64,000 nt of DNA from a virus (IMGVR_UViG_3300047548_001390:14107-78106); one strand, 5' to 3'. Positions 2,176 through 20,436 are shown, counted from the first letter of the stretch. Numbers and translations are program-made. Notes: a model not told the origin generated them from the letters alone.

Positions 2176-3147
2176 TTAACCTAAGTAGAAGTCAAGAGGA
2201 GCTGACTTGTTGATCAATTCATCTTCAAGCTCTTTAATTTCTGATATGGCCGTTTGATACATTGATTGACCATCAATGGTGACTCCACCAGGTAGTTGAA
2301 TACCAGAAAATTTAGAAAGATTAGTTGCCCATTGTCTCTTAAAAAGAGCAGTAGTATAGTGTTTCAACCATGGCTCGCTCCAGACTTTTTGGAACTGAGC
2401 TGGATCTAGAGCACGATAGCATTCCACCACAACATGATCTCCAGGACGGATATCTGTTTCCCAGTTAATTACAGGATACAAACGTCCTTGCATACGGTTG
2501 AAACTGATTTGTGGTCTGCCATTCAATTCTAGGTCAAGCAAAGCAAGGTGACCCATCACTTGCTTATAATAGATGATAGATGTTGATGCAAGATCATACA
2601 AGTCGTTCAATCTTAACTGATATTGAATATCAAACATTGATTTGGATGTCTGAGTACCAGCAAATGGAATTAAACGAACAACACCATATACCCAATCTGA
2701 CAACTGAAGATATTTTAATTCTGTTTCTCCAGGCGTATAAAAATTTGTAGTGGCAAGGGTTGCGGTAATCGCTGGATTGTCTTCCACTTGAATTGTTTCA
2801 CCGGCTTGGAATTCGCCAGTAACAAAACGAATAATCAGTTCTGTTCCTTGCGATACTTTGTCTGTTTGATCAACAACTCGAGCACGTGCTCCAGATGTTT
2901 GGCCAATAACCCAATCATTTAATGGGAAGGTTTCTGCAACAGATTGCTGCAAAGTAAGAGTTGAAGCATTAATCTTGTGCTTGAGATATACTTTTTCAAT
3001 GCCGTCATAGTGATACAAACGCCAGTATTCCAAGGCTTCGTCGATGCGATCCTCCAACTGGTCGTCTTCTATATTAATTTCAAGAACAGGAGCTCCGAGA
3101 TTACGAAGGCAGTATTCTTTTAATTGCTGTCTAGTTGTAACGGCCAT
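2176..3147 (-). CDS. 13: Neck protein gp13
   Basis: LKEYCLRNLGAPVLEINI...QLEDRIDEAL and KRQWATNLSKFSGIQLPGGVTIDG motifs. Confidence 0.93.
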   Translation of the reverse strand: MAVTTRQQLKEYCLRNLGAPVLEINIEDDQLEDRIDEALEYWRLYHYDGIEKVYLKHKINASTLTLQQSVAETFPLNDWVIGQTSGARARVVDQTDKVSQGTELIIRFVTGEFQAGETIQVEDNPAITATLATTNFYTPGETELKYLQLSDWVYGVVRLIPFAGTQTSKSMFDIQYQLRLNDLYDLASTSIIYYKQVMGHLALLDLELNGRPQISFNRMQGRLYPVINWETDIRPGDHVVVECYRALDPAQFQKVWSEPWLKHYTTALFKRQWATNLSKFSGIQLPGGVTIDGQSMYQTAISEIKELEDELINKSAPLDFYLG

Positions 3148-3185
3148 GTTGGGTCTCTTAATCGGGTAGGTTAATCGTTTATTGA

Positions 3186-3620
3186 TTATTTATTTAGTTG
3201 TTTAACTACCTCTTCTGGAGACACCCAGCAATCATCCCGGAACTCACACTGTTCCCAGATCCAAAACTGCTTTTCTCTTAGGTATTTTCTATCTTTTAAC
3301 ATGTTAATGTTTTCAGGATGTCCAAATATATTAGGATCCGACTGTCCCCACAAAACAATCCCTGGTTTACCAAGATCCCAGCAGAAATGTTGAAAAAAAC
3401 TATCCACTGAGATCCAAGTTCTACATTCATTAACTAAAGAACCCAGTTCTTTCAAACTGAGATTCTTTCTGAAATCTTCGACTAATTGTTCCTCTCCTTC
3501 TATCCCTATTTGCACGATTGGCTCATCAATCAGCTCAACCAACTGTTTAAAAAAAGGATAGTTTTTAGGGTTATTCTTTCCATTACGAAGTTTCTTGGAA
3601 TATGGTGAGATAATAATCAT
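3186..3620 (-). CDS. Glycosyltransferase family 9 (heptosyltransferase-like) C-terminal domain protein
   Basis: KNYP...ISVDSFFQH...PGIVLWGQSDPNIFGHPEN motifs resemble the GT9 C-lobe; ATGA-coupled to the upstream GT. Confidence 0.65.
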   Translation of the reverse strand: MIIISPYSKKLRNGKNNPKNYPFFKQLVELIDEPIVQIGIEGEEQLVEDFRKNLSLKELGSLVNECRTWISVDSFFQHFCWDLGKPGIVLWGQSDPNIFGHPENINMLKDRKYLREKQFWIWEQCEFRDDCWVSPEEVVKQLNK

Positions 3621-4612
3621 GATAGGTACATCTTCCTAAACGCATCTTCAACAGATCCTTTCCAATTCCATTGATCCATTTTCTTGTAGATATTCCATTG
3701 ATCAATACTTCCATACAAAGCAATTGCTTCAGCGATTGGTCTACACGGAATAATTTCTGGATAACAACCAAACACAATTGGATCTTTCAGGTCTTTTAGG
3801 ATTTTTTTAAACACAATGTGGTCACCCATACCATTATCAAGAACCACAATTGTTTTATCTTTTATGTTTAACGTGTTTCTAAAAATTTGCTCATCATGCG
3901 CATACAATTCAGCATTATCGTTTGATCGAATACCACCTTCTGGGTTCTTTAGATGCCAAGTAACGCAGTCTTCTATAACTGCACACTTATATCCCTTTTG
4001 TACTAATCCACAAGAAAACAGAGTCTCCTCTCTGTGTGCAACTCTTGATAACCCAGTGTTGTAATCAACAACTCCAGCACGATACAAAAAAGAACAGTGT
4101 AGATGATCTACATATCTGTCTTGTGTAATGTGACCCCATTGAATGTTTGGTTCGCTGTCAATATTTTCGATTTTACCAGTTGCTTTTCTTGGAGAGCAGT
4201 CCCAAGATGGCGTTAGAATAGATCCACCAACTGCCCCAATCCGATCTCGATCAAAAGTATTAGCTCGTTTCCAGAGTTTTTTTAACACATCTGGTTCTAA
4301 TATAGTATCGTCATCAACTCGAAGAAGCCATTGATCTTTATACTTTGTATTAAAATATTGATGCCCGAAATGTTGACCTTTACATACACCATATACTACT
4401 TCCCACGATATGTTTTTTAAATTCATTATAAGAAATATATTGGTATAGAGAGGATTACTACGAAGATCAATTCTCTTATCTTCATCATTATCATCATATA
4501 AAACAATTCTTTTAGGTAGAAGTGTCTGATTTATTATTGAAACTAGAGCCATCGGTAATGTTGTTAGATATCTCCCCCTCGTGCATATATAAGCAATTAT
4601 GTCTGGTTTCAA
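3617..4612 (-). CDS. GT-A/family 2-like glycosyltransferase with a C-terminal GT9-like N-lobe
   Basis: SIINQT...VLYDD, RVDDD (DxD) and GMGDHI motifs. TTG start lies inside the 3' end of the HNH ORF. Confidence 0.75.
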   Translation of the reverse strand: MKPDIIAYICTRGRYLTTLPMALVSIINQTLLPKRIVLYDDNDEDKRIDLRSNPLYTNIFLIMNLKNISWEVVYGVCKGQHFGHQYFNTKYKDQWLLRVDDDTILEPDVLKKLWKRANTFDRDRIGAVGGSILTPSWDCSPRKATGKIENIDSEPNIQWGHITQDRYVDHLHCSFLYRAGVVDYNTGLSRVAHREETLFSCGLVQKGYKCAVIEDCVTWHLKNPEGGIRSNDNAELYAHDEQIFRNTLNIKDKTIVVLDNGMGDHIVFKKILKDLKDPIVFGCYPEIIPCRPIAEAIALYGSIDQWNIYKKMDQWNWKGSVEDAFRKMYLS

Positions 4613-5216: not shown

Positions 5217-6500
5217 TTATTCTGCATTATATTCACACAACATTAAATTAAAGCGACTATTTTCGATAGGTTTATCATCAAGGTTTCCGTGCTCATCACA
5301 AAAAGTGTATTTAAATCCTGGAAGATGGGATTCATTCAACATATGCAATTTGTGATGCTCACCCCAGAATCCAGGAGGTTCTTTATATGGAACAGAGATC
5401 AATAAAGTATTACAATGTTTCTTTAACTTCTCAACAATTTCTAAACCATTGTCTAAGTGTTCAATCACCTCAAATGCAACAATGGTGTCGTATTGTTTGA
5501 GATGATACGTGTTAATGTCTGCCCATTCAAACTTTCTGTATTTGTTACCAAACTCATATCTTGCCACATCAATAATACGCTTATCATAATCAACACCAGT
5601 GTAATCCGATTGTAAATTAAAAAATTGTGATCCAAATCCACTGGAGCATCCAATTTCTAAAATAGAACCATCAAGTGCTTTTGTTGCTGCCCATTTATAT
5701 CGTGCTGCTTCTCTTGCTGGGACTTCTTCACCTGCAAGGTTAACATGACGCTCGAAATTATTCGTTAAAAGGTATTTGTAATACTCTCGATTATACTTAC
5801 GAGCGACTCTTAACATATTAGATTTGAATCTATCATCCCAATCTTCAACTAGATTGGTGTCTCTCATCGTACCTTGACCTTTGTGATAGATCGGAAATCC
5901 GCCAGTGAACTGTTGACCGCCAGCAAACTTTGGTACGCACTCTTGTAGTGTAAATCCTGCTCTTTGAGCTTCAACACAAAACTCAATGTCTTCTCCAGCA
6001 CCAGTGCCATACTCAGTATTCAGTAAACCTATTTTGTCGAATACTTTACGATCAATCATCACACAGAAAAACACTGCAAAGTCTGCATTTGCTTCTGGTG
6101 AGTGATTAATGATTGGTGCGGAAATACCACAATTCTGTTTAAGCAGAAGCGGACTCTCTAAAAGATTTATCCAGTAGTTTTTATCTTGTGGAAGGAGAAC
6201 GGTGTCATTGTTTAGAAGAATGATACGCTGTCCAGTACAGACTTCGAGACCAACGTTAATTGCTTCCGGATATCCAATAGCGTCATTGTTCCAAACAACT
6301 TTGAGATGATTTGAGAATCCAATAAAATCGAACTTTTGTTGAAGTCCACTAAGGTATTCGCCAGTGTTATCGATACATCCGTTTGCCGATATGACCAACT
6401 CAACATCAGTCATATCAGTGTGATTGAAGATGGATTCTATGCAGGGTTTTAAATAATCATCACAATGATTAAAAGTTGGGATTACAATACTATATTTCAT
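5217..6500 (-). CDS. Glycosyltransferase family 2 fused to a SAM-dependent methyltransferase
   Basis: YSIVIPTFN...LLNNDT (GT2); ILEIGCSSGFG...YDTIVAFEVIEHL (class I methyltransferase). Confidence 0.85.
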   Translation of the reverse strand: MKYSIVIPTFNHCDDYLKPCIESIFNHTDMTDVELVISANGCIDNTGEYLSGLQQKFDFIGFSNHLKVVWNNDAIGYPEAINVGLEVCTGQRIILLNNDTVLLPQDKNYWINLLESPLLLKQNCGISAPIINHSPEANADFAVFFCVMIDRKVFDKIGLLNTEYGTGAGEDIEFCVEAQRAGFTLQECVPKFAGGQQFTGGFPIYHKGQGTMRDTNLVEDWDDRFKSNMLRVARKYNREYYKYLLTNNFERHVNLAGEEVPAREAARYKWAATKALDGSILEIGCSSGFGSQFFNLQSDYTGVDYDKRIIDVARYEFGNKYRKFEWADINTYHLKQYDTIVAFEVIEHLDNGLEIVEKLKKHCNTLLISVPYKEPPGFWGEHHKLHMLNESHLPGFKYTFCDEHGNLDDKPIENSRFNLMLCEYNAE

Positions 6501-6550
6501 AATAACTCCATTGTAAAATTACATATTACTTATTCTTGCAACAAATAACG

Positions 6551-6840
6551 TTATAAAGCAGATGGAGGTGTAAAATTCGCTGTGTATCTAGCTATACCTT
6601 TTGTAATACGAAGATCATCTATATATCCCGAAAACCACTCACCATAGGACAAAGTACCGGTTGATAATTGTCTAGCTCCAATAGCGAAGTTATTATTTTG
6701 AATATTATAAGACTGAGAGTTGGTTGCTGTGGCGTATGCAGTACCGTTTACAAATATTCTGAATATCCGCTAATGCCGGAATATCCTGACTCTCCTTGAG
6801 GTAGACTAGATTGTAGTACGGTTTTAATGTCTAAAGTCAT
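6551..6840 (-). pseudogene. Internally deleted fibre gene or fused remnants: SGYSG-repeat N-terminus joined out of frame to a LamG/ConA C-terminal fragment
   Basis: ATG 6840 gives MTLDIKTVLQSSLPQGESGYSGISGYSEYL* (stop 6748-6750). A second frame from ~6763 reads FRIFVNGTAYATAT...FSGYIDDLRITKGIARYTANFTPPSAL* (stop 6551-6553). Confidence 0.75.
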
Positions 6841-6843
6841 GAC

Positions 6844-7521
6844 TTATCCTGCGTTGTTTACACGGTTACTTGTTTTTAAAGTGCTAACTTCTGATCGCAA
6901 TGATTCAATTTGTTTTTGCTGCTCTTTGATTGCTTCAATTAATATTCCTACAAGACTTCCATAAGATACTGTTAGAACTTTTCCACCACCATTTACAGCA
7001 TACGGAACAACCTTTAACACTTCTTGAGCAATTACGCCAACAGCATGCTCTCCCGTTGCTTTCCAATCAAACTCTACACCACGTAAAGATAGTATCTTAT
7101 TTAAAGCATTTTCAATTGTAGTAATATTTGTTTTCTCACGCTCATCAGATACACTATTAAAATCAGTCGCTTGTGCTGTCCCGTTTACCTGTAATTTAGA
7201 TGATCCATTATCAGTTCCAGTACCAATCAACACATTACCAGAATACTGAGCAATCTTAACAAGACCTGTGTCTATCACTTCAAGAGACGGAATACCAGAA
7301 ACATCGTTAACCGACCAAATAGTTCCTGTTAAACTATTTGTGATGGAAAACAACTGACCAGCAGATCCCTCCAACGAAATGGTTCCATTGTTGGTTGGAT
7401 AGACGTTCAGAGTAATAGTCCGAGGACCAGTAGAGGCGTCAGCACCCTTGAATTCAATCTTGGGATCCGCTGACTGACCTTTGTTCGTGGTAATTAAAAT
7501 GTCTTTATCTGATAATGCCAT
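6844..7521 (-). CDS. Short tail fibre/spike protein with a peptidase S74 intramolecular chaperone domain
   Basis: SDEREKTNI...LRGVEFDWK...GVIAQEV...V.YGSLVGILIEAIKE followed by a coiled coil. Confidence 0.85.
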   Translation of the reverse strand: MALSDKDILITTNKGQSADPKIEFKGADASTGPRTITLNVYPTNNGTISLEGSAGQLFSITNSLTGTIWSVNDVSGIPSLEVIDTGLVKIAQYSGNVLIGTGTDNGSSKLQVNGTAQATDFNSVSDEREKTNITTIENALNKILSLRGVEFDWKATGEHAVGVIAQEVLKVVPYAVNGGGKVLTVSYGSLVGILIEAIKEQQKQIESLRSEVSTLKTSNRVNNAG

Positions 7522-7550
7522 TATAGTTTCCTAGATTACTCTTTTATTTA

Positions 7551-9059
7551 TTAGATGCCGAAGCGTCCACGCAATGCGTTAAAGTTTTGTTTTACTTCTG
7601 CTGCTGTAAGTGCTCGGTTGTACATAAAAGCGCTACCAATTTTTCCATTAAAAAATTCAGCTCCACCCAAACTTCCAATTAATAAATTTCCTCCCGTGGG
7701 TGCCGAAGGAGAAAATGGTGTGGTATTACTAGCAACTAACTGTCCGTTTACATAGGCTTTAAGACCCGATGAATCTCCTGTTACAGCACAATATGACCAC
7801 ACGTTGTTTGGACACTCACCACCCTGAACCGAATTTCCAGATACATACCACCACAGTGCATTAGAAGTGCTGTCTAATCTAAATCTATATCCTGAATTTT
7901 GATTTTTTGACATTACATTACCAAGGCCACTAGCGGATACAGGATTTACCCAAGCAGCCATAGTTATTGAACTTGCTTGTTGTAGAGATACGCCGTTACC
8001 ACAATCAATATAATTACTACTACCATTAAAACTAAACGTACCATCAGCAGCATAAGTTAAACTATTTGCTGTAATTGTATTGTTTCCTGTTTGATCTATA
8101 ATTGCCTGAGTGTTAGAACGAGTTCCTGCTGCAAAATTATTGGCAACAGATCCAGCTTCAAATTGTATGTTAGAAATGTCATATTTCATATTTCCACTTG
8201 CAGGAAACCAATATGAAATGCAACTAGGGTTATTAGGAGTAAAAGTAAAATAATACTTTTTCCATTCGTTAAAAGCACCTAACGTAAAATTCCAAGATGG
8301 ATTTGTCGGGGAAGTTACACCATAATTGTATATTGAATATGAGTTGTTTAATCCTACTGCGGATACAGAAGCTGCCCTTGCCCAGAACGATACAGTGTGT
8401 GGAGTACCAGCAGTAACAGTCGCATCGACTCCATATGCCATTCCATCCAGTCCTTCATTCCGAATGTAGTGTAATCTAATACAATCGGTTGCAGCACGAC
8501 CTGGAATTCCGTTAAATCCTTTAGATATAATTTCTTTAACTAGTCCCGAATTAGCTAGGTGAGGATACCCCCACCACATAGTTGGGAATGAGGTTGAATT
8601 AATAGAAACTCGTTGATCTAACGCAATACTATCATGGACTTTGAACATGCCTGTAAAAGGGTTCACATAACCTTGACTACCATCCTGACTACTATTATAT
8701 GCATGTAAGGAAAATTGTGTGTCTGAAATTTTCTTTATGAAATAGTTTGTTGCTGCTGTAACTCCACCACCAGTTGTCTGAGGTTGCATCACATCGTATG
8801 TTCTCAAACTGTGAGGCGCAGTCATAGTTACAATATTATCAGATACACTTGAAACTGTACCTATAGAAAAATAAGTGCCTGATCCATATTGATTAGTATT
8901 ATACGTACCCCAACCGTTTCCTGTGGTAGGATATCCATTAATTGCTGGCGTTGGAAGCAAATTCGTAACTGGAGCCCCAATATTAGACTTACCGTTGCCC
9001 ATATCATAGGCAAACACTAATCCTTCAGTTACAATTTTAGGAGAATGATTAAGTGCCAT
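7551..9059 (-). CDS. Virion/tail adhesin with a CBM-like region and C-terminal LamG/ConA-like lectin domain
   Basis: IVTEGLVFAYD N-terminal motif; C-terminal YVNGQLV...FNGKIG..MYNRALTAAEVKQNFNALRGRFGI. Start reassigned to 9059 (TAATG overlap with the upstream small ORF). Confidence 0.8.
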   Translation of the reverse strand: MALNHSPKIVTEGLVFAYDMGNGKSNIGAPVTNLLPTPAINGYPTTGNGWGTYNTNQYGSGTYFSIGTVSSVSDNIVTMTAPHSLRTYDVMQPQTTGGGVTAATNYFIKKISDTQFSLHAYNSSQDGSQGYVNPFTGMFKVHDSIALDQRVSINSTSFPTMWWGYPHLANSGLVKEIISKGFNGIPGRAATDCIRLHYIRNEGLDGMAYGVDATVTAGTPHTVSFWARAASVSAVGLNNSYSIYNYGVTSPTNPSWNFTLGAFNEWKKYYFTFTPNNPSCISYWFPASGNMKYDISNIQFEAGSVANNFAAGTRSNTQAIIDQTGNNTITANSLTYAADGTFSFNGSSNYIDCGNGVSLQQASSITMAAWVNPVSASGLGNVMSKNQNSGYRFRLDSTSNALWWYVSGNSVQGGECPNNVWSYCAVTGDSSGLKAYVNGQLVASNTTPFSPSAPTGGNLLIGSLGGAEFFNGKIGSAFMYNRALTAAEVKQNFNALRGRFGI

Positions 9060-9894: not shown

Positions 9895-12815
9895 TCAGTC
9901 TCCACTTGCAACTTATCAATATCGACACGTTCCGCTAACACATAGTAATAACAGTTGATATCTGTACTCATAAAATTATCATTCCCAACATACACTTTGT
10001 TGTCTTCAACTTTCTTAACATACAGTTTCTGGTGTTTTCCAATAGGTGTAAGTTGAACAGTAATTGATTCTGGATCAACTAACTTTGTCCAGTAGTCCGG
10101 TAATTCAATTACATTCCCTGTAAGTTTTCCACGAACATAAACGCCGTTCTCTGGACCTTCCAAAGAACCATAAATTAACCTCTTACCCTCTTTAGTTGGG
10201 TGAGGGATAGAGAACGACTTGGATACAGCAGATATTGTACCAGTTGCTGCATTAAATGATAATTTTGTTGTAGTTACTTTAGGTGTCTGATTAGATCCAG
10301 CAGCACCAACCATGACAGGATATAGAGTAACGGTTGACGTGTCATCAGTTGCGTTAATTGCAGTTGATGGGCCGCTGGCACCACTGATACCAGACCAACC
10401 TGAATATCCAGAAATACCCGAGTATCCACTAAATCCAGAATCACCATTAGATCCAATTACTCCATCTTGTCCTGAGTACCCACTAAAACCTGAGTAACCA
10501 GAAAATCCGGATGCACCGTCACCACCAAGTACACCATCTTGCCCTGAGTAACCACTTATTCCGGAGTATCCAGAATAACCAGAAATACCACTGTACCCCG
10601 AGGCACCAATTTCTCCGGAATAACCAGAGAACCCAGATTCACCTTGTGGTCCAGTTTCTCCAGAAAATCCTGAATAGCCACTAAAGCCAGAATCACCTGA
10701 AGCACCAACTTCACCCGACAAGCCGTCTTGACCACTAAACCCTGAGTACCCGGAAATGCCCGAGTAACCACTAGTGCCAGACTCGCCTTGAATACCCTGT
10801 TCACCTTGCGCACCAGAATATCCGCTGATACCAGACTCTCCAGAATATCCACTAAATCCTGATATGCCGGAGTCACCAGAGTATCCACTAATGCCGCTGA
10901 ATCCTGATATTCCAGTCTCTCCTTGAGCGCCATCTTGGCCGGAGTAGCCACTAAATCCAGAATATCCGGAGATACCTGAAGCGCCGGAGTCTCCACTAAA
11001 TCCGGATGCGCCCTCTTGACCGGAGTATCCACTAATGCCGCTGAATCCAGAGTAACCACTGAATCCCGATTGTCCATCTAACCCCGAATAACCCGAGTAA
11101 CCAGACTCACCGCTAAACCCTGATTCACCTTGTCCAGAATATCCGCTAATACCACTAAACCCTGAGAAGCCGCTTAACCCCGATATACCTTGCTCACCTT
11201 GGATACCTTGCGCACCAGAAAGATCAGTTACATACTGATATGAAGAGCCGTTCCAAAGATATAACCTTGAGCTCTCTGCATCTTCCACATTACCAGTATC
11301 GATAATAGCAAATTGACCTGCTGTGATACCTGTTGGCGATGTATCTGCTGTTAATGCTGCAACTGAACTATAAGTTTTGGCAATAGTGAATCCCATACCA
11401 ACAGCACCACTGAATCCTGAGAATCCACTAATACCTGAATATCCAGAAATACCAGATTCACCTTGAATACCATCTTGTCCTGAATATCCACTGAAGCCTG
11501 AGTACCCACTAAATCCTGATTCCCCATTAGCACCAGATTCACCTGAGAATCCGGAATATCCAGAAATACCAGATTCACCTTGGATGCCGTCTTGTCCTGA
11601 GTATCCACTGAAGCCGCTTGTACCAGAATACCCACTGATACCAGATTCGCCTTGAGCGCCATCTTGGCCAGAATAACCACTAAATCCAGAATTACCTGAG
11701 AAACCACTGATACCTGATTCACCTGAATATCCACTTGCACCCGACTCACCTGAGAATCCACTATAACCAGAGATACCCGAGTCTCCGGAAATACCAGAAT
11801 CGCCACTATAACCGGAGATACCGGAGTATCCCGATTCGCCAGAACCCCCACTGAATCCCGATTCTCCTGAGTATCCACTAATGCCGCTATAACCAGAGAT
11901 ACCCGAGTCTCCGGAGTATCCACTGATACCACTAGCGCCCGATTCTCCTGAGAATCCACTGTAGCCAGAAATACCAGAGTCTCCACTGAATCCAGATATA
12001 CCCGATGTGCCTTCTTGTCCTGAATATCCACTGAACCCAGATTCTCCGGAATAACCACTAAACCCAGAGGTACCCGATGCGCCCTCTTGACCAGAGTAAC
12101 CGCTAAATCCGCTGTAACCAGAATATCCGGATAATCCTGGAACATCGCCAGGTTGAACATTTTCCCAACGTCCAGCTGTAGAGTTGTATACAATTAAATC
12201 GTTATTTGCAAGTGTTCCAAATTCGACGTTAGAGTCAGTTCCACCAAGAACTGAACCATTAGTCATCCTAACGTAAATACGACCAGTACTTGCGTGCTGA
12301 CGAAGAACAATTGCTATTGGGGTTTTGATATTTGGTGCGGATGGTTTTGTAGAGGTCCATCCACCTGCAACAGCAGGGTTTGGGTAGAGAATTGTACCAA
12401 CTGCATATGCACTGGTGTTGACGTCACGAACAACGCCATTTGTAATAATTTGTGCAAACTCATCGTCAGTGGTGATGTCACGAGTAGCAACACCAATCAT
12501 GTATTCTGGAGCAACGGTACCATTTGTTACAGCAGCAGCAATAGTGATCTTGTCACCTTGCGCTCCAGTCGCCATAACAAAAGAACCGTTGGGAATTGTT
12601 ATGCCTGATGTGTTTTTACACGGCGGCATGAAGAACTCTTGACCAACCTGTTGGACGACACCATTATCGTGCCCAACATTAAGAGTATCATCTTCTGTGT
12701 TATACCATACACGACCTAGAGCAGGAGTTGCTGCTGTAGTGGTATCAAAGTCTACATAAACAACACCAGCATATGGTGCTAAAAGACCATTCTTGGCCTT
12801 AAATTCGTTTGCCAT
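9891..12815 (-). CDS. Long collagen-like (Gly-X-Ser) repeat tail fibre protein
   Basis: MANEFKAKNGL N-terminus; about 500 residues of SGY/SGF/SGI/SGE triplets with Gly every third residue; C-terminal KSFSIPHP...SLEGPENGVYVRG chaperone-like tail. Confidence 0.8.
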   Translation of the reverse strand: MANEFKAKNGLLAPYAGVVYVDFDTTTAATPALGRVWYNTEDDTLNVGHDNGVVQQVGQEFFMPPCKNTSGITIPNGSFVMATGAQGDKITIAAAVTNGTVAPEYMIGVATRDITTDDEFAQIITNGVVRDVNTSAYAVGTILYPNPAVAGGWTSTKPSAPNIKTPIAIVLRQHASTGRIYVRMTNGSVLGGTDSNVEFGTLANNDLIVYNSTAGRWENVQPGDVPGLSGYSGYSGFSGYSGQEGASGTSGFSGYSGESGFSGYSGQEGTSGISGFSGDSGISGYSGFSGESGASGISGYSGDSGISGYSGISGYSGESGFSGGSGESGYSGISGYSGDSGISGDSGISGYSGFSGESGASGYSGESGISGFSGNSGFSGYSGQDGAQGESGISGYSGTSGFSGYSGQDGIQGESGISGYSGFSGESGANGESGFSGYSGFSGYSGQDGIQGESGISGYSGISGFSGFSGAVGMGFTIAKTYSSVAALTADTSPTGITAGQFAIIDTGNVEDAESSRLYLWNGSSYQYVTDLSGAQGIQGEQGISGLSGFSGFSGISGYSGQGESGFSGESGYSGYSGLDGQSGFSGYSGFSGISGYSGQEGASGFSGDSGASGISGYSGFSGYSGQDGAQGETGISGFSGISGYSGDSGISGFSGYSGESGISGYSGAQGEQGIQGESGTSGYSGISGYSGFSGQDGLSGEVGASGDSGFSGYSGFSGETGPQGESGFSGYSGEIGASGYSGISGYSGYSGISGYSGQDGVLGGDGASGFSGYSGFSGYSGQDGVIGSNGDSGFSGYSGISGYSGWSGISGASGPSTAINATDDTSTVTLYPVMVGAAGSNQTPKVTTTKLSFNAATGTISAVSKSFSIPHPTKEGKRLIYGSLEGPENGVYVRGKLTGNVIELPDYWTKLVDPESITVQLTPIGKHQKLYVKKVEDNKVYVGNDNFMSTDINCYYYVLAERVDIDKLQVETD
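10375..12135 (-). repeat. Degenerate 9-nt coding repeat (Ser-Gly-X), interrupted by a globular segment at ~11200-11400
   Basis: Visible in both DNA and protein; synonymous positions are varied. Confidence 0.9.
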
Positions 12816-15974: not shown

Positions 15975-16030
15975 GCGTACTCCGCGTTTGTTTTATTTAT
16001 CTTTACAATAACCTGGTATATTTATTGTTT

Positions 16031-16894
16031 TTAAATCAACGGCTTCATTGTGCAGATGTAATAAATCGGCTGTGGTTCTCCATTCATCATCGGAAGAATG
16101 GTCATTTTGAACCTGTTATCGTAAATATCAGACCAACTTCTATTACTTTCTATCGTTTCCCACATTTGATCATATGAATTGATATAGGGAACACACATAA
16201 TCATGTCTCTTCCTACAACATTATCATAATGACCAAAATCAAATATATCGACAAACCGATCGTTACAAAAAAACATTTTTTTATGTTTATCAACAATAAA
16301 AATGATATCAGAGGCTGAATTCAGAGCATTGAAACACGCTTTTGTACGCTTTTGTTTTTCGCGGATTGACGTAACATCGCGGCCAATGATAATTAGCTCT
16401 TTTCGTGACCCGTCCACATTGAATACCGGGGTTTTCAAAATATCAAAAATGTATGTCGAACCATCGTGTGGGATGTATTCTTCAGTTCTACACGTCTTTT
16501 TTGTGTTCCACGCCTGGTTGTCTGTCACTTGACATTGAGATAACGACTCAAATAGATGAGGATATACCTTCTTTAATTGTTCATCCGTTTTACCGTAGTA
16601 CTCACCGTGATGCCAATTATAAAGACACTGTCCCCGATGGTTCAGCGTCCTCCACTTCCCTTCCCCATCTTTCACTATGACAAGATCATTAATAGCATCA
16701 ATAGTAGAATAGAACCGAGATTCAGAAGCATGCAACTCTTCTTGCAATACAGTAGCGGCACTAACGGCAGCTTCGGATACCTCCATAGCTGTAGTGCTCA
16801 ATAGGTTAAGACTCTCATCAAGTTGTTTGAGGTCCACCTGATGAGAGTCTTTTTTATGCTGTTTTTTGGGTTTATTTAAAAGACGGGAAATCAT
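16031..16894 (-). CDS. Stand-alone PAS-domain protein (coiled coil + PAS/PAC + PAS)
   Basis: IDAINDLVIVKDGEGKW..LN...YGKTDEQL...KTPVFNVDGSRKELIIIGRDVT; second PAS at LNSASDIIFIVD...FCNDRF. No kinase or GGDEF output domain. Confidence 0.85.
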   Translation of the reverse strand: MISRLLNKPKKQHKKDSHQVDLKQLDESLNLLSTTAMEVSEAAVSAATVLQEELHASESRFYSTIDAINDLVIVKDGEGKWRTLNHRGQCLYNWHHGEYYGKTDEQLKKVYPHLFESLSQCQVTDNQAWNTKKTCRTEEYIPHDGSTYIFDILKTPVFNVDGSRKELIIIGRDVTSIREKQKRTKACFNALNSASDIIFIVDKHKKMFFCNDRFVDIFDFGHYDNVVGRDMIMCVPYINSYDQMWETIESNRSWSDIYDNRFKMTILPMMNGEPQPIYYICTMKPLI

Positions 16895-16903
16895 AGCTAC
16901 TCA

Positions 16904-17182
16904 TTACTTTCTATTGGATTGAATAGTAATGAGCACGATCTTGATTTCGTTTAATGCTTGAACAAGATCTAAATTGCCTTTATGATAACGATCTACAATC
17001 TCTTTGATTGATGTGGTTTCACTGTCTTTTGCTTCATATACTAATTTGGTTGTTTCTGTGAGGTTTTTAGAGAGAGTTTTACGGTCCCAAATCAATACAC
17101 CTATAGCGACAAACAATATCGTAATAACCGCTGCTTCTCCCCCAGCAGCTAAGAATTTTAATAGCGTGTGGGCGAAATCCAT
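16904..17182 (-). CDS. Small membrane protein (holin-like?)
   Basis: Single hydrophobic helix (AAVITILFVAIGVLIW) followed by an amphipathic/coiled C-terminus. Confidence 0.55.
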   Translation of the reverse strand: MDFAHTLLKFLAAGGEAAVITILFVAIGVLIWDRKTLSKNLTETTKLVYEAKDSETTSIKEIVDRYHKGNLDLVQALNEIKIVLITIQSNRK

Positions 17183-17234
17183 AGTGGGTTGTTTCCTTGA
17201 TTAGCCTTTCACGAGACTTTGTGAAAGTGCCAAT

Positions 17235-17242
17235 TATTTATG
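17235..17242 (-). promoter_or_regulatory. Late promoter variant CATAAATA, followed by a 7-bp hairpin (17206-17227)
   Basis: NATAAATA upstream of the membrane-protein/PAS pair; CTTTCAC...GTGAAAG inverted repeat. Confidence 0.5.
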
Positions 17243-17262
17243 TGATTTGATTGGCTTGATAA

Positions 17263-17499
17263 TCAATTTGAAGATAGTAAATCTTTAGCCCTCTGGACGT
17301 CCGCTAAATGTGACTTTTTGCAGTGCTCTTTTTCAAAAGGGTAAAATAATGCATCAATGATTAACTGAGCGTATTTCCATTGTTGGCGATAGGATCTACC
17401 GCTAATACTTTCGTTTGACGTCGTCTCGTCTATTCTAGGCAAAAACATTACATTTAGCAGTTGGCTTAAAGCATCGCCAATCATTAGTAATCGTTTCAT
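17263..17499 (-). CDS. Conserved phage hypothetical protein
   Basis: DALSQLLNV...NESISGRSYR...IDALF...EHCKKS pattern. Start reassigned to ATG 17499, just after the upstream stop. Confidence 0.65.
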   Translation of the reverse strand: MKRLLMIGDALSQLLNVMFLPRIDETTSNESISGRSYRQQWKYAQLIIDALFYPFEKEHCKKSHLADVQRAKDLLSSN

Positions 17500-17500
17500 T

Positions 17501-18349
17501 TTATGGCTGATCCCATATATTAGTCGCCTTAAAAAACTGTCCGTTTGTATAATCAGTATAAAAATCAAAATTATCTATTGTAACACCCTCCATGTAGGCA
17601 TATTTTTTTACATCATTGAAATACACATCTGCAGTGTACTTTTCCATTGGTAAAACATTTTTATCACGAATCTTACATTCGCGGAGATGGTCAACCCCTT
17701 CTTTCCCCCAGATACCAGTTAATAAATGCCGAGTAATAATTTTTGGATGGTAAGCCATTCCGTGATTATTGAACAATTCTCCTGGAAGTGGAGTGATCCT
17801 TTTGTATCCGTATTCTTTAATTGCTTCAAACACAAGTTTAGGTCCAGCCACATTAAGAACAAACTCTCTGTTTGATTGCTGATCAAAAGGTAAGGTAATC
17901 TTTGTTGTTTCTTTCAGTCTGTTGAACGATGCAACAGCCATCTCCATACAGGTCTCAAAAAACGTATGACCAGCTGAAGATATCATCAAAGCGTTTTCGA
18001 TAGGAATATCACCATACGGTGCCTGAACAATGTATACTCCTGACCTCAAATTGCGGTCAAATCTATGATAGCAGAACACATCCATATCTGCATAGATTCC
18101 ACCATACTTGTGGAGTATACAGAATCTAGCAAAATCAATTTTCATGATGTGAGCAGGGAACTGTTGGAAGGTTTCCCAGTACTGCGGATAGTGTGTTTCA
18201 ATTAAATTGTCGAGATCTTCGTGGTCATTCCAAAGTTTGAACTGATAGTCCGGAAATTTGGACAACCACGAATCTCGACAAGGTTTCCATAAAGGATGCC
18301 ACTTTGATTCGTCACTTGGTGCTATATGATGTATAATTTTTGGAATCAT
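17501..18349 (-). CDS. GT32/OCH1-like DxD glycosyltransferase
   Basis: MIPKIIH...W...DFARFCILHKYGGIYADMD. Confidence 0.88.
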   Translation of the reverse strand: MIPKIIHHIAPSDESKWHPLWKPCRDSWLSKFPDYQFKLWNDHEDLDNLIETHYPQYWETFQQFPAHIMKIDFARFCILHKYGGIYADMDVFCYHRFDRNLRSGVYIVQAPYGDIPIENALMISSAGHTFFETCMEMAVASFNRLKETTKITLPFDQQSNREFVLNVAGPKLVFEAIKEYGYKRITPLPGELFNNHGMAYHPKIITRHLLTGIWGKEGVDHLRECKIRDKNVLPMEKYTADVYFNDVKKYAYMEGVTIDNFDFYTDYTNGQFFKATNIWDQP

Positions 18350-18488
18350 ATTATAACCTTAGTCACGTTTTTGTCAGTTTTAACGTTATGTTGTTTTAAA
18401 ATATCTGAGAATTCCTTGTTGCTTGCGTTATTTGCATTAATAAATTGTATGTTAATTTATAAATTGGTAGTTCTTTTGTTTGTGCCAT
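18346..18488 (-). pseudogene. avd: Putative DGR remnant: truncated Avd-like (four-helix bundle) N-terminus fused to the 3' end of another gene, possibly the DGR reverse transcriptase
   Basis: ATG 18488 gives MAQTKELPIYKLTYNLLMQITQATRN|SQIF* (stop 18396-18398). The other frame after ~18411 reads FSDILKQHNVKTDKNVTKVII*, with TGA overlapping the next ATG. Lies immediately downstream of the VR-bearing gene. Confidence 0.7.
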
Positions 18489-18517
18489 AATATATTCTCA
18501 GTTTAAATAATTAAATG

Positions 18518-19867
18518 TTAAATTACAAATCTCCGGACTGCGCGGACCCTGGCGCTGAAAGTCTTATTGGTGTTGCTCGGGGAGCCACCGTTGAAATCCT
18601 GGAACCAAGCATTGGAAGCACCGACCTCGCTGGAAGACCAGTAGTTGTCTGCGTCATTGGTTTCACCAGAAGGTAACGAAGCCCGATTGACCCAAGCAAG
18701 ATTTAATTCATCTTTAGCTGGAAGGTACCAATCTGAGAATCCACTAATACTCAGTCCTCTTGTATAAAAAGCAGCAGGATGTGTTGAATTGTTCATGTTA
18801 TTAGTATTTGTCCAGCCATCAACCAAAGATGTTGTTCCACTAGTTGTTGTGCCAGTGGTTTTCCATTGTAACGTAGATGCAGACTGGCCCGATGCCTTTG
18901 GCGCTAACAGTATACCATACCATACCCCACTTACACTTATATGTCCAATAAAATATCCGCCATCAATTAGAGAACCAAGCGTTGAAGTGTAAATACTAAA
19001 TCTCCGGACTGCGCGGACCCTGTAGCCGGTAGTCTTAGTGGTGCTGATCTGGTCGCCACTGGAGAAGTCCTGGCCCCAAGCCTCGGTTTCAGTGCGATGA
19101 CTGGAAGACCAGTAGGAGACTGCATCATTAGCTTCACCGGAGGGTAATGACGCACGAGAGGTCCAAGCAAGATTTAGCTCGTCTCTAGCTGGAAGATACC
19201 AGTCTGCATATCCAGATGCAACGATCCCTCTTGTATAGCTTGCTGCAGCATGCGAAGAGTCGTTCATAAAGTTCGTATTGGCCCAGCCATTGATTGCAGA
19301 TGAGGTTCCACCAGTTGTTGTGCCAGTGGTTTTCCATTGTAACGTAGATGCAGACTGGCCCGATGCCTTAGGTGCTAACAGTATACCATATAGTACTCCA
19401 TTTACACCTAGAGCTCCAATATAATAACCACCTTGATATGATGCACCAAGTGAAGATGCGAATGAAGAGTTAGTAACAAAAGTTGTTCCGGACGACCAGG
19501 CAGAATAAGTTCCATTTGCATCTTTATAACGCACTCTCCAGTAATATGTGGTGGAGTTACTCAACATTCTCCTTGGGTTAAAAGTATAGGATGTACTAGT
19601 TCCTGCAATGTCACCGGTGGAAATCACAGTGCTTGCGAAGTTTGATACTGTTGACACCTGAAACTGCGCAGCTGCCATTGAAACGCCATTAAATGATGTA
19701 TATGATGACCCGATTAATGTAATATTTTCAAAATTTGCACCAGTATTTGTAGTACCATCAGCAGGAGTCACATTAGTTGGTTTAATGAGACCTGTTAGCT
19801 GAGTCCCATCACCAATGAATTCTTTGTTATCTGTGATAACAGTAACGCCAGAAATTTTAACAGCCAT
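18518..19867 (-). CDS. Tail/adhesin protein: FN3-like domain plus two tandem Lcl-C/DUF1566-like (CLec-fold) domains; DGR target
   Basis: YYWRVRYKD...SAWS (FN3); two copies of DWYLPA.DEL...YWSSS...AW.QDF..G.....K......RAVRRF. Confidence 0.88.
   Translation of the reverse strand: MAVKISGVTVITDNKEFIGDGTQLTGLIKPTNVTPADGTTNTGANFENITLIGSSYTSFNGVSMAAAQFQVSTVSNFASTVISTGDIAGTSTSYTFNPRRMLSNSTTYYWRVRYKDANGTYSAWSSGTTFVTNSSFASSLGASYQGGYYIGALGVNGVLYGILLAPKASGQSASTLQWKTTGTTTGGTSSAINGWANTNFMNDSSHAAASYTRGIVASGYADWYLPARDELNLAWTSRASLPSGEANDAVSYWSSSHRTETEAWGQDFSSGDQISTTKTTGYRVRAVRRFSIYTSTLGSLIDGGYFIGHISVSGVWYGILLAPKASGQSASTLQWKTTGTTTSGTTSLVDGWTNTNNMNNSTHPAAFYTRGLSISGFSDWYLPAKDELNLAWVNRASLPSGETNDADNYWSSSEVGASNAWFQDFNGGSPSNTNKTFSARVRAVRRFVI
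18527..18652 (-). repeat. DGR variable region (VR), C-terminal copy
   Basis: Paired with 18998-19123 (offset 471 nt). Identical 25-nt GC-rich 3' block; mismatches concentrated at codon positions 1-2. Confidence 0.8.
18998..19123 (-). repeat. DGR variable region (VR), internal copy
   Basis: Paired with 18527-18652; same evidence. Confidence 0.75.
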
Positions 19868-19878
19868 TTTGATTTCCT

Positions 19879-20436
19879 TTATTGAATATTAAAAGCAACA
19901 ACAAATACTTCATCTAATTGTTCTTTTGTCCAACCCATTTGCTTGTACAGTTCTTGTATCGTGGGGCTATTTTTTCTCACTTCAGTTGCATATTCCCATT
20001 CAATCAGCACTTTTGTCTTCATTGGTTCTTGTAAACCTTCAACAAAAGATTGTACTTCAGCCAATTTACCAAGCTCAAGCAGAGCCAATCTAATTTGTCT
20101 AGCACTAGCGACAGAAGGTAATCTCGCCTTCATCTCGTCTGCTTTAGCTTGATCATATTGTTGTTGAGCAGTTGTTGTTTCCGTCACTGGATTACCATCA
20201 GCGTCAAGAGTTGACGTTGTAATATCCTTAAACACGTGTACAACACCTTCTACTAACAGGTTTGCATCATCATCGCAGGTGCCATAGTATTTTGGTACTC
20301 GGGTTGGCCAAACACTTTCATCCCACCATTCGATTGCTAACCCTTTTATATCAGGATATTTGGGACCATTGATGGTGGGAGATTTTGAAGCAGAGACCCC
20401 GGTAACGGAATCTACGTGGGTAACACAGATATACAT
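19879..20436 (-). CDS. Hypothetical protein, probably a fibre-associated/assembly factor
   Basis: SARQIRLAL...IEWEYATEVRKNSP...LDEVF pattern typical of fibre-adjacent genes; immediately upstream of the DGR target. Confidence 0.6.
   Translation of the reverse strand: MYICVTHVDSVTGVSASKSPTINGPKYPDIKGLAIEWWDESVWPTRVPKYYGTCDDDANLLVEGVVHVFKDITTSTLDADGNPVTETTTAQQQYDQAKADEMKARLPSVASARQIRLALLELGKLAEVQSFVEGLQEPMKTKVLIEWEYATEVRKNSPTIQELYKQMGWTKEQLDEVFVVAFNIQ

Follow-up and report, generated by a model that had tools for sequence, protein, structure and literature searches.

A gene for a putative tandem-lectin adhesin of a T4-like phage next to the probable remains of a diversity-generating retroelement

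In the diversity-generating retroelement (DGR) of BPP-1 the components are ordered mtd, which contains the variable region (VR), avd, the template repeat (TR) and the reverse transcriptase (RT) gene brt. The VR lies on the C-terminal strands of a C-type-lectin-fold domain, the template is rich in AAY codons, and at the 3' end is a GC-rich IMH, the DGR's initiation-of-mutagenic-homing site. Here we describe a gene for a 449 amino acid protein with two VRs (18518..19867, on the minus strand, as are all window features given below), present in 64,000 nucleotides of viral DNA (IMGVR_UViG_3300047548_001390:14107-78106; in the following the window, with positions counted from its first base). The window comprises bases 14107-78106 of a 78,106-bp virus record of IMG/VR with a CheckV completeness of 49%. 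The locus resembles BPP-1 in the placement of the VR on the C-terminal strands of the lectin fold, in the AAY-rich template and GC-rich 3' IMH, and in the target-avd-TR-RT order, which is intact in relatives and to which a scar points here. It is unlike BPP-1 in that the target belongs to Lcl_C/DUF1566 and not to Mtd, in the two VRs within one gene, in that no stable hairpin was found after the IMH either here or in working relatives, in the large T4-like host genome and in the deletion of the cassette. The reading we prefer, which we hold to be probable but by no means certain, is that of a decayed DGR: both VRs were once rewritten, the adjoining avd-TR-RT core has been deleted, and therefore the two ligand-binding tips are now most likely frozen, at two different specificities.

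Targets of the DUF1566/Lcl_C family constitute the 'CLec2' class of DGR targets, category d, of the Legionella LdtA type (Wu et al. 2018, PMC5758913). The protein of the window shares with this class the Pfam family, the VR at the domain C-terminus ending in ...VRAVRR and the N-terminal Ig-like domains. While most members of the class are bacterial surface lipoproteins or adhesins, here a putative phage fibre protein with a tandem-duplicated lectin domain is concerned. Targets with more than one VR have been described: several VRs per open reading frame (ORF) are found in 31 DGRs (Yan et al. 2019, PMC6642488), and one target has three tandem FGE-sulfatase domains, all of them diversified (Wu et al. 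2018, PMC5758913). As in these systems, one TR would have served several VRs of one protein via a repeated IMH; in distinction to them the domain class is Lcl_C and the TR is missing, so that a single TR for both VRs is what we infer. DGRs on apparently lytic phages have been reported from viromes (PMC7981956). The original prediction considered a dual-VR receptor-binding protein in a T4-like myovirus unusual, which holds for the T4-like host genome only, since dual VRs in one gene and DGRs on lytic phages had both been published (PMC6642488, PMC5758913, PMC7981956). Particular to this locus is that a dual-VR lectin adhesin and an avd-RT fusion scar which can be read cleanly occur together in a T4-like genome. 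To our knowledge DGRs have not been described in cultured large lytic T4-like phages of freshwater bacteria. The locus indicates that large lytic T4-like freshwater phages, too, can have lectin tips in their fibre loci that were diversified by a DGR.

The two lectin domains are direct repeats with a spacing of 471 nt and an identity of 75-78%. Near the end of each repeat lies a variable segment of 33 codons, VR1 at codons 250-282 (19022..19120) and VR2 at codons 407-439 (18551..18649), and at the 3' end of each lies an identical IMH-like GC-rich 25-mer, CAGGGTCCGCGCAGTCCGGAGATTT, which encodes part of RVRAVRRF (18998..19022 for VR1 and 18527..18551 for VR2). This 25-mer has exactly two occurrences, where none is expected by chance, and corresponds to the 3' end of the TR/VR homology in two related loci with a working cassette, L005 and L029. 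A comparison of VR1 and VR2 over the 33 codons preceding RVRAVRRF gives 21 differing codons, the third base being unchanged in 16 of them; of the last 15 VR codons 10 differ, all with the third base unchanged. In terms of residues the two VRs are unlike at 19 of 33 positions. Differences at the first, second and third codon position number 30, 17 and 39 in the scaffold versus 13, 14 and 5 in the VR (Fisher p=0.003), and the ratio of synonymous to nonsynonymous differing codons falls from 25/33 in the scaffold to 2/19 in the VR (p=0.007). At the third positions of the 3' VR and IMH a single difference is found in 28, the rate in the scaffold being 0.34 (binomial P=1.3e-4). The VRs also stand out in composition, with 21 C-ending codons out of 41 versus 13-18 out of 114 in the scaffold, and a GC content of 56-59%, while the gene as a whole has 45% and the window 40%. 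Abundant change at the first two codon positions combined with a near-identical third is incompatible with gene conversion or neutral drift, and is expected of two adenine-mutagenised copies of one AAY-rich template. From the near-identical third positions it follows that both VRs would have been rewritten after the scaffolds diverged.

Most of these features had been part of the original prediction, and a codon-by-codon table returned identical counts for the differing codons, as it did the 471-nt spacing of two lectin-like domains, the duplicated 25-mer and the preference for C-ending codons and high GC. The statement that the copies differ mostly synonymously upstream applies to the approximately 30 codons just before YWSS, not to the scaffold as a whole. 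Likewise reproduced was a 57-nt identical tract (18842-18898 = 19313-19369, codons 167-185 = 324-342) within the otherwise 78%-identical scaffold, which gene conversion between the tandem domains is likely to have made and which is separate from the DGR footprint. Codons 160-187, around this tract, show 3 differences in 84 nt.

Further evidence for a DGR origin comes from relatives in which the cassette is intact. A protein scan of IMG/VR yielded five relatives, L005 among them, and a protein-alignment scan of metagenome contigs yielded 80, to which the closest homologs with dual domains (P0002, P0003 and P0005) do not belong. L005 (IMGVR_UViG_3300020047_002722) is the nearest intact relative found, and carries in this order the target (5238-6644), a 118-aa Avd-like gene, the TR (7151-7279), the RT (7295-8413) and a MYICVTYVD gene. 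Its target is built of an FN3-like and one Lcl_C domain, ends in YVRAVRRVAV and is about 49% identical to the protein of the window over the best aligned segment. Further likenesses are the N-terminus of Avd, 56% identical to a stub in the window, a TTTAAT-type junction and the MYICVT... partner gene; unlike the window, L005 has a single lectin domain, intact avd, TR and RT, and a small contig which is not T4-like. All 17 mismatches between TR and VR of L005 are at TR adenines. Across ten cassette-bearing loci this proportion is 83-100%, and it is 100% in seven of the ten (L005, L021, L022, L029, L031, L040 and the pair in L029) and 83-94% in L024, L025 and L074/L075. In L031 the VR (3242-3375) has 134 nt versus 135 nt in the TR (3880-4014), so that the reading frame of the target shifts inside the VR, indicating either a broken target or an assembly error. 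The RT of the relatives is 34% identical to Brt, and the cassette adjoins the target in every intact relative.

The TRs of these relatives follow the pattern ...GCN TGG AAA CAG AAY TTC AAY AAY GGC AAY CAG AAC AAC AAC AAT AAG AAC AAY NCA AAC (TAT/AGG) GTN CGN GCN GTN MGG, and align in frame and without gaps with both VRs of the window. The differences between VR1 and VR2 are enriched at the adenines of the relatives' TRs in six of the seven TRs tested (odds ratio 4-6, p 7e-5 to 3e-3), the seventh, that of L040, giving no significant enrichment (odds ratio 2.2, p 0.10). The template which can be deduced from the two VRs, and which had been proposed beforehand, is close to the real TRs of relatives, with an identity of 72-79% over the 3' 75 nt, while the VRs themselves reach 57-67%. 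It had further been remarked that five codons do not fit a pure A-to-N model; these do require third-position adenines in the TR, but codons of this kind (AAA, ACA) occur in the real TRs of relatives, and the five codons are therefore no obstacle. The predicted DGR origin of both C-terminal segments is thus right as history, given the codon for codon alignment with the relatives' TRs, the enrichment at TR adenines and the co-occurrence of homologs with TR and RT in the ten cassette-bearing loci. A hairpin or cruciform just downstream of the IMH is reportedly the rule in BPP-1, as set out by Guo and coworkers in 2011. No stable hairpin follows the IMH at either VR of the window (z 0.1 and 1.1) or in the working relatives L005 and L029, and this DGR lineage may do without it.

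Among the closest homologs, the contigs of which measure 98-122 kb, with P0004 at 98 kb and P0005 at 122 kb, P0002, P0003 and P0005 have the same two-domain build as the target and P0004 has one domain. In each of the two-domain homologs scaffold identity between the domains is 60-85%, but drops to 26-56% in the variable stretch. The codon signature is not visible in the dual-domain relatives L012, L019, L027, L034, L046, L068 and L083, whose domains are too diverged. Three degenerate VR/TR patterns found no match in viral contigs, and a TR-specific pattern with an adenine at each differing site none in metagenome contigs, results which say little as the window's own record was excluded from both scans.

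The C-type-lectin fold assumed for the two domains was confirmed at the level of both profile and structure. A conserved N-terminus (MAVKISGVTVITDNKEF...; MAIKI.G.TVI.D in common with relatives) is followed by an FN3/Ig-like domain at aa 60-132 (19472..19690), which matches Pfam PF25788 (Ig_Rha78A_N, E 8e-7) and, by Foldseek, rhamnosidase N-terminal Ig and FN3 domains. The internal lectin domain 1 (aa 136-292, 18992..19462) and the C-terminal lectin domain 2 (aa 293-449, 18521..18991) are matched in two stretches by the Pfam hidden Markov model (HMM) of Lcl_C (PF07603, formerly DUF1566) with 75.6 bits versus a cut-off of 34.9 (E 5e-21), and each copy is above cut-off in an HMM search of the genome. 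The AlphaFold model has a mean predicted local distance difference test score (pLDDT) of 90 for the whole protein and 92.9 for domain 2. The top structural match of the domain-2 model is the C-terminal domain of Legionella Lcl (8q4e, Z 14.8), followed by a Bacteroides fimbrial protein (4eps, Z 12.8), the C-terminal domain of Bdellovibrio Bd2740 (Z 10.7), CRD-4 of the macrophage mannose receptor (Z 8.1) and the DGR variable proteins TvpA (2y3c, Z 7.4) and Mtd (1yu0, Z 6.6); many further C-type lectin domains are in the match list, also with Foldseek. In the model the variable codons are predicted to fall on the last four strands of each lectin domain, i.e. on the C-terminal strands of the C-type-lectin fold. 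The fold, the position among fibre and baseplate genes and the part that DGR lectin tips are known to play in phage tropism suggest that the protein is a fibre-type adhesin or receptor-binding protein. In it the N-terminus would serve for attachment and the FN3/Ig-like domain as a spacer that carries the two lectin tips.

There is no working DGR at this locus: neither a TR nor an RT is present in the 78 kb, and of the adjoining cassette only the 5' stub of avd and 12 codons of the RT have survived the deletion. A third VR copy or a TR was not found in the 78 kb by BLAST, by a search with the inferred TR or by a degenerate scan, there was no RVT_1 match, and tblastn with the RTs of nine relatives gave no match. 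Of the genome search suggested earlier, the part concerning the 25-mer stood, with two copies found, and that concerning the TR yielded no copy in the 78 kb. The gap after the target gene has 168 nt and holds a scar of 143 bases (18346-18488). The scar contains an avd pseudogene stub of about 34 codons (18389..18488), whose ATG is 29 nt past the target stop and whose ORF reads MAQTKELPIYKLTYNLLMQITQATRNSQIF up to the stop codon. Avd queries from nine relatives match only 18411-18488 in all six frames of the 78 kb (tblastn, E 3e-6 to 6e-3, 50-62% over 24-26 aa); tblastn with the RT and Avd of L005 at E<=1e-3 did not pick up the scar. Codons 1-21 of the stub are in frame, and past codon 21 the +1 frame runs colinear with Avd for about 11 codons (RKQQGILRYFK versus RKTKTFSREFK in L005), so that the stub is probably frameshifted by 1 nt as well as truncated. 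At the other end of the scar the last 12 codons of an RT, VKTDKNVTKVII plus stop, are found in a third frame (18346..18384), their TGA overlapping the ATG of the next gene. When compared to the RT C-terminus of L097 (VRFDKNLTKIIG) this peptide scores 35, highest among the 156,142 twelve-mers in the six frames of the contig, the next having 24, and it ranks second with the RT C-termini of L021 and L098. RTs of this lineage have in common a conserved C-terminal motif, ...NLTK[LIV]I. L005 and L029 also share with the window, at the DNA level, the AT-rich TTTAAT-type junction that lies between target and avd. By comparison with L005 the loss would amount to approximately 1.6 kb, in which the TR and almost the entire RT were contained, and presumably took place in a single event.

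Scars of this kind are not restricted to the window. In L003 and L004 Avd 1-22 is joined to RT 340-372 (L003:10906-11067, L004:4650-4811), in L041 Avd 1-40 is joined to RT 64 onward (2563-3576), in L042 Avd 1-60 is found with the RT end (1890-2237), in L006 Avd 1-47 (1703-1843), in L039 and L060 Avd 1-74/77 (L039:793-1014, L060:3321-3542) and in L043 the RT end alone (10944-11111). The endpoints vary, and the 5' end of avd and/or the 3' end of the RT are always retained. Of the relatives with enough downstream sequence about 10 have an intact cassette, about 10 have remnants and about 20 have nothing, so the retroelement core appears easily lost, truncated cassettes being about as many as intact ones in this family. 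For annotation the lesson is that a VR-type codon signature does not equal ongoing hypermutation, and that it is the short gap behind the gene where the decisive evidence is to be sought.

In the history which we propose the last approximately 33 codons of each lectin domain would be a VR written by mutagenic retrohoming: the RT would have copied an AAY-rich TR, adenines would have been randomised, and the cDNA would have replaced the VR up to the GC-rich 3' IMH represented by the shared 25-mer. As long as the cassette was present, cDNA of one TR could have homed to either VR via the common 25-mer, and the last writing of both VRs would have been from one template and later than the divergence of the domains. 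The avd-TR-RT core would formerly have been directly downstream of the target, as in relatives, and a single deletion of about 1.6 kb may have brought avd codon ~34 next to the 12 final codons of the RT, with the scar at 18346-18488 as the result. Rewriting of the VRs would at present be inactive. Two fixed tips in one protein may confer two fixed binding specificities, which is testable and would not be surprising.

An explanation without any DGR, by diversifying selection on the binding surface together with gene conversion between the tandem domains, we consider highly improbable. Gene conversion does occur, as the 57-nt identical tract in the 78%-identical scaffold illustrates, and in P0005 the two domains have a protein identity of 85%; but conversion cannot alter bases 1 and 2 while sparing base 3. 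The bias towards NNC codons, the remnants of avd and RT found 29 nt downstream and the codon-for-codon homology to VRs with proven TR partners speak against such an explanation. As for a DGR which is now silent, several points weigh against it. The gene's own TR being missing, the adenine test on this gene is one by surrogate, through the TRs of relatives. The RT remnant is just 12 codons long, the five differences at third positions towards the 5' side of the VR have to be explained by unusual TR codons or by ordinary mutation, and the 78-kb record is about 49% of the genome, in the remainder of which a second DGR could lie. In addition a contig from run X2, of another study, is 96.4% identical over 16019-18551, gap-free through the scar and with the 25-mer kept, yet 18552-18637, exactly VR2, cannot be aligned at an identity of at least 80%, and the alignment resumes at 18638. 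The scar thus appears to predate the split of the window phage and the X2 relative, yet VR2 is strongly different. If the deletion is older than the split, the change in VR2 needs recombination with DGR-proficient relatives or a DGR in trans. Recombination, by which VRs or scar alleles would be swapped between co-infecting relatives, is easy in T4-like phages, the flanks being conserved, and may account for X2.

A DGR active in trans, i.e. a second avd-TR-RT in the unsampled half of a genome of about 160 kb that rewrites both VRs via the 25-mer despite the dead adjoining cassette, seems to us unlikely. It would account for the very different VR2 of the X2 relative, which is 96% identical and has the scar as well, and if true would mean a trans-active DGR in a lytic T4-like phage. 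The near-identity of third positions in the 3' VR and IMH, which places the last writing recently relative to the scaffold divergence, is in agreement with it, and phage DGRs with a target at some distance from the cassette, within 50 kb, are on record (PMC5758913); about 10 kb separate the RT from an Lcl_C hit in Pseudomonas phage Cruim01. On the other hand the cassette serving this gene adjoined it and is now deleted, adjacency is the arrangement of all intact relatives, and this RT lineage is found only on contigs of 4-100 kb, none of T4 size, among the best 80 of at least 590 viral hits, and in records of cultured phages of 12-100 kb, none of them T4-like, among 40 listed of 141. These same contig sizes, together with the siphovirus-like genes (e.g. 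tape-measure-like and lysis) beside intact cassettes, are what would be expected from a variant of the decayed DGR, possible but rather doubtful, in which the DGR never ran in a T4-like genome and the target with its dead scar, or both diversified domains, were imported by recombination from a smaller DGR phage. The fibre locus is indeed modular, with the MYICV partner gene before the target in the window and in L073 and after it in about 45 other loci. Against import, L039 and L060 share with the window the truncated avd and a nearby GT32-like homolog, which suggests decay inside this genomic neighbourhood.

The genes around the target are a T4-type baseplate module, with a gp6-like protein (phrog_219, E 3e-170), a gp5-like hub-lysozyme, wedge subunits and a fibre with S74 chaperone by PHROG families. 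The gp6 homolog, aligned over 98% of its length, shares 38% identity with its counterparts in Pelagibacter phage HTVC008M and Methylophilales phage Melnitz. The label T4-like was therefore well chosen: the phage is a T4-like myovirus, Straboviridae-like and of the HTVC008M/Melnitz group, with a T4-type baseplate module (gp5, gp6, gp7-like). The sequencing runs which best match the window are metagenomes of freshwater and aquatic origin. In the source run X1 no assembled contig covers either VR or much of 16.5-18.7 kb. Further joints in X2 and X3 suggest that the VRs there are a mosaic of VR1 and VR2 of the window.

Abutting the scar is the gene for a GT32-like glycosyltransferase (17501-18349), whose start codon shares bases with the stop of the RT remnant in an ATGA overlap. 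The GT32-like homologs near the truncated cassettes of L039 (2912-3715) and L060 (4261-5064) are 32-35% identical. On the other side of the target is the partner gene (19879..20436), encoding a 185 amino acid protein (MYICVTHVD...) which matches phrog_6034, a family of unknown function. About 47 related loci have a homolog which either directly adjoins the target or follows the RT (e.g. L005:8398-8835 and L010:11077-11283). The MYICVT(H/Y)VD gene, of 145-185 aa, is a near-constant neighbour of the Lcl_C target and follows the RT where the cassette is intact; its product may be a fibre assembly or partner protein. In L073 (65-3044) two paralogous 387-aa Lcl_C targets are on either side of a MYICV-type gene, giving the order target, partner, target, which matches the partner-before-target order of the window.

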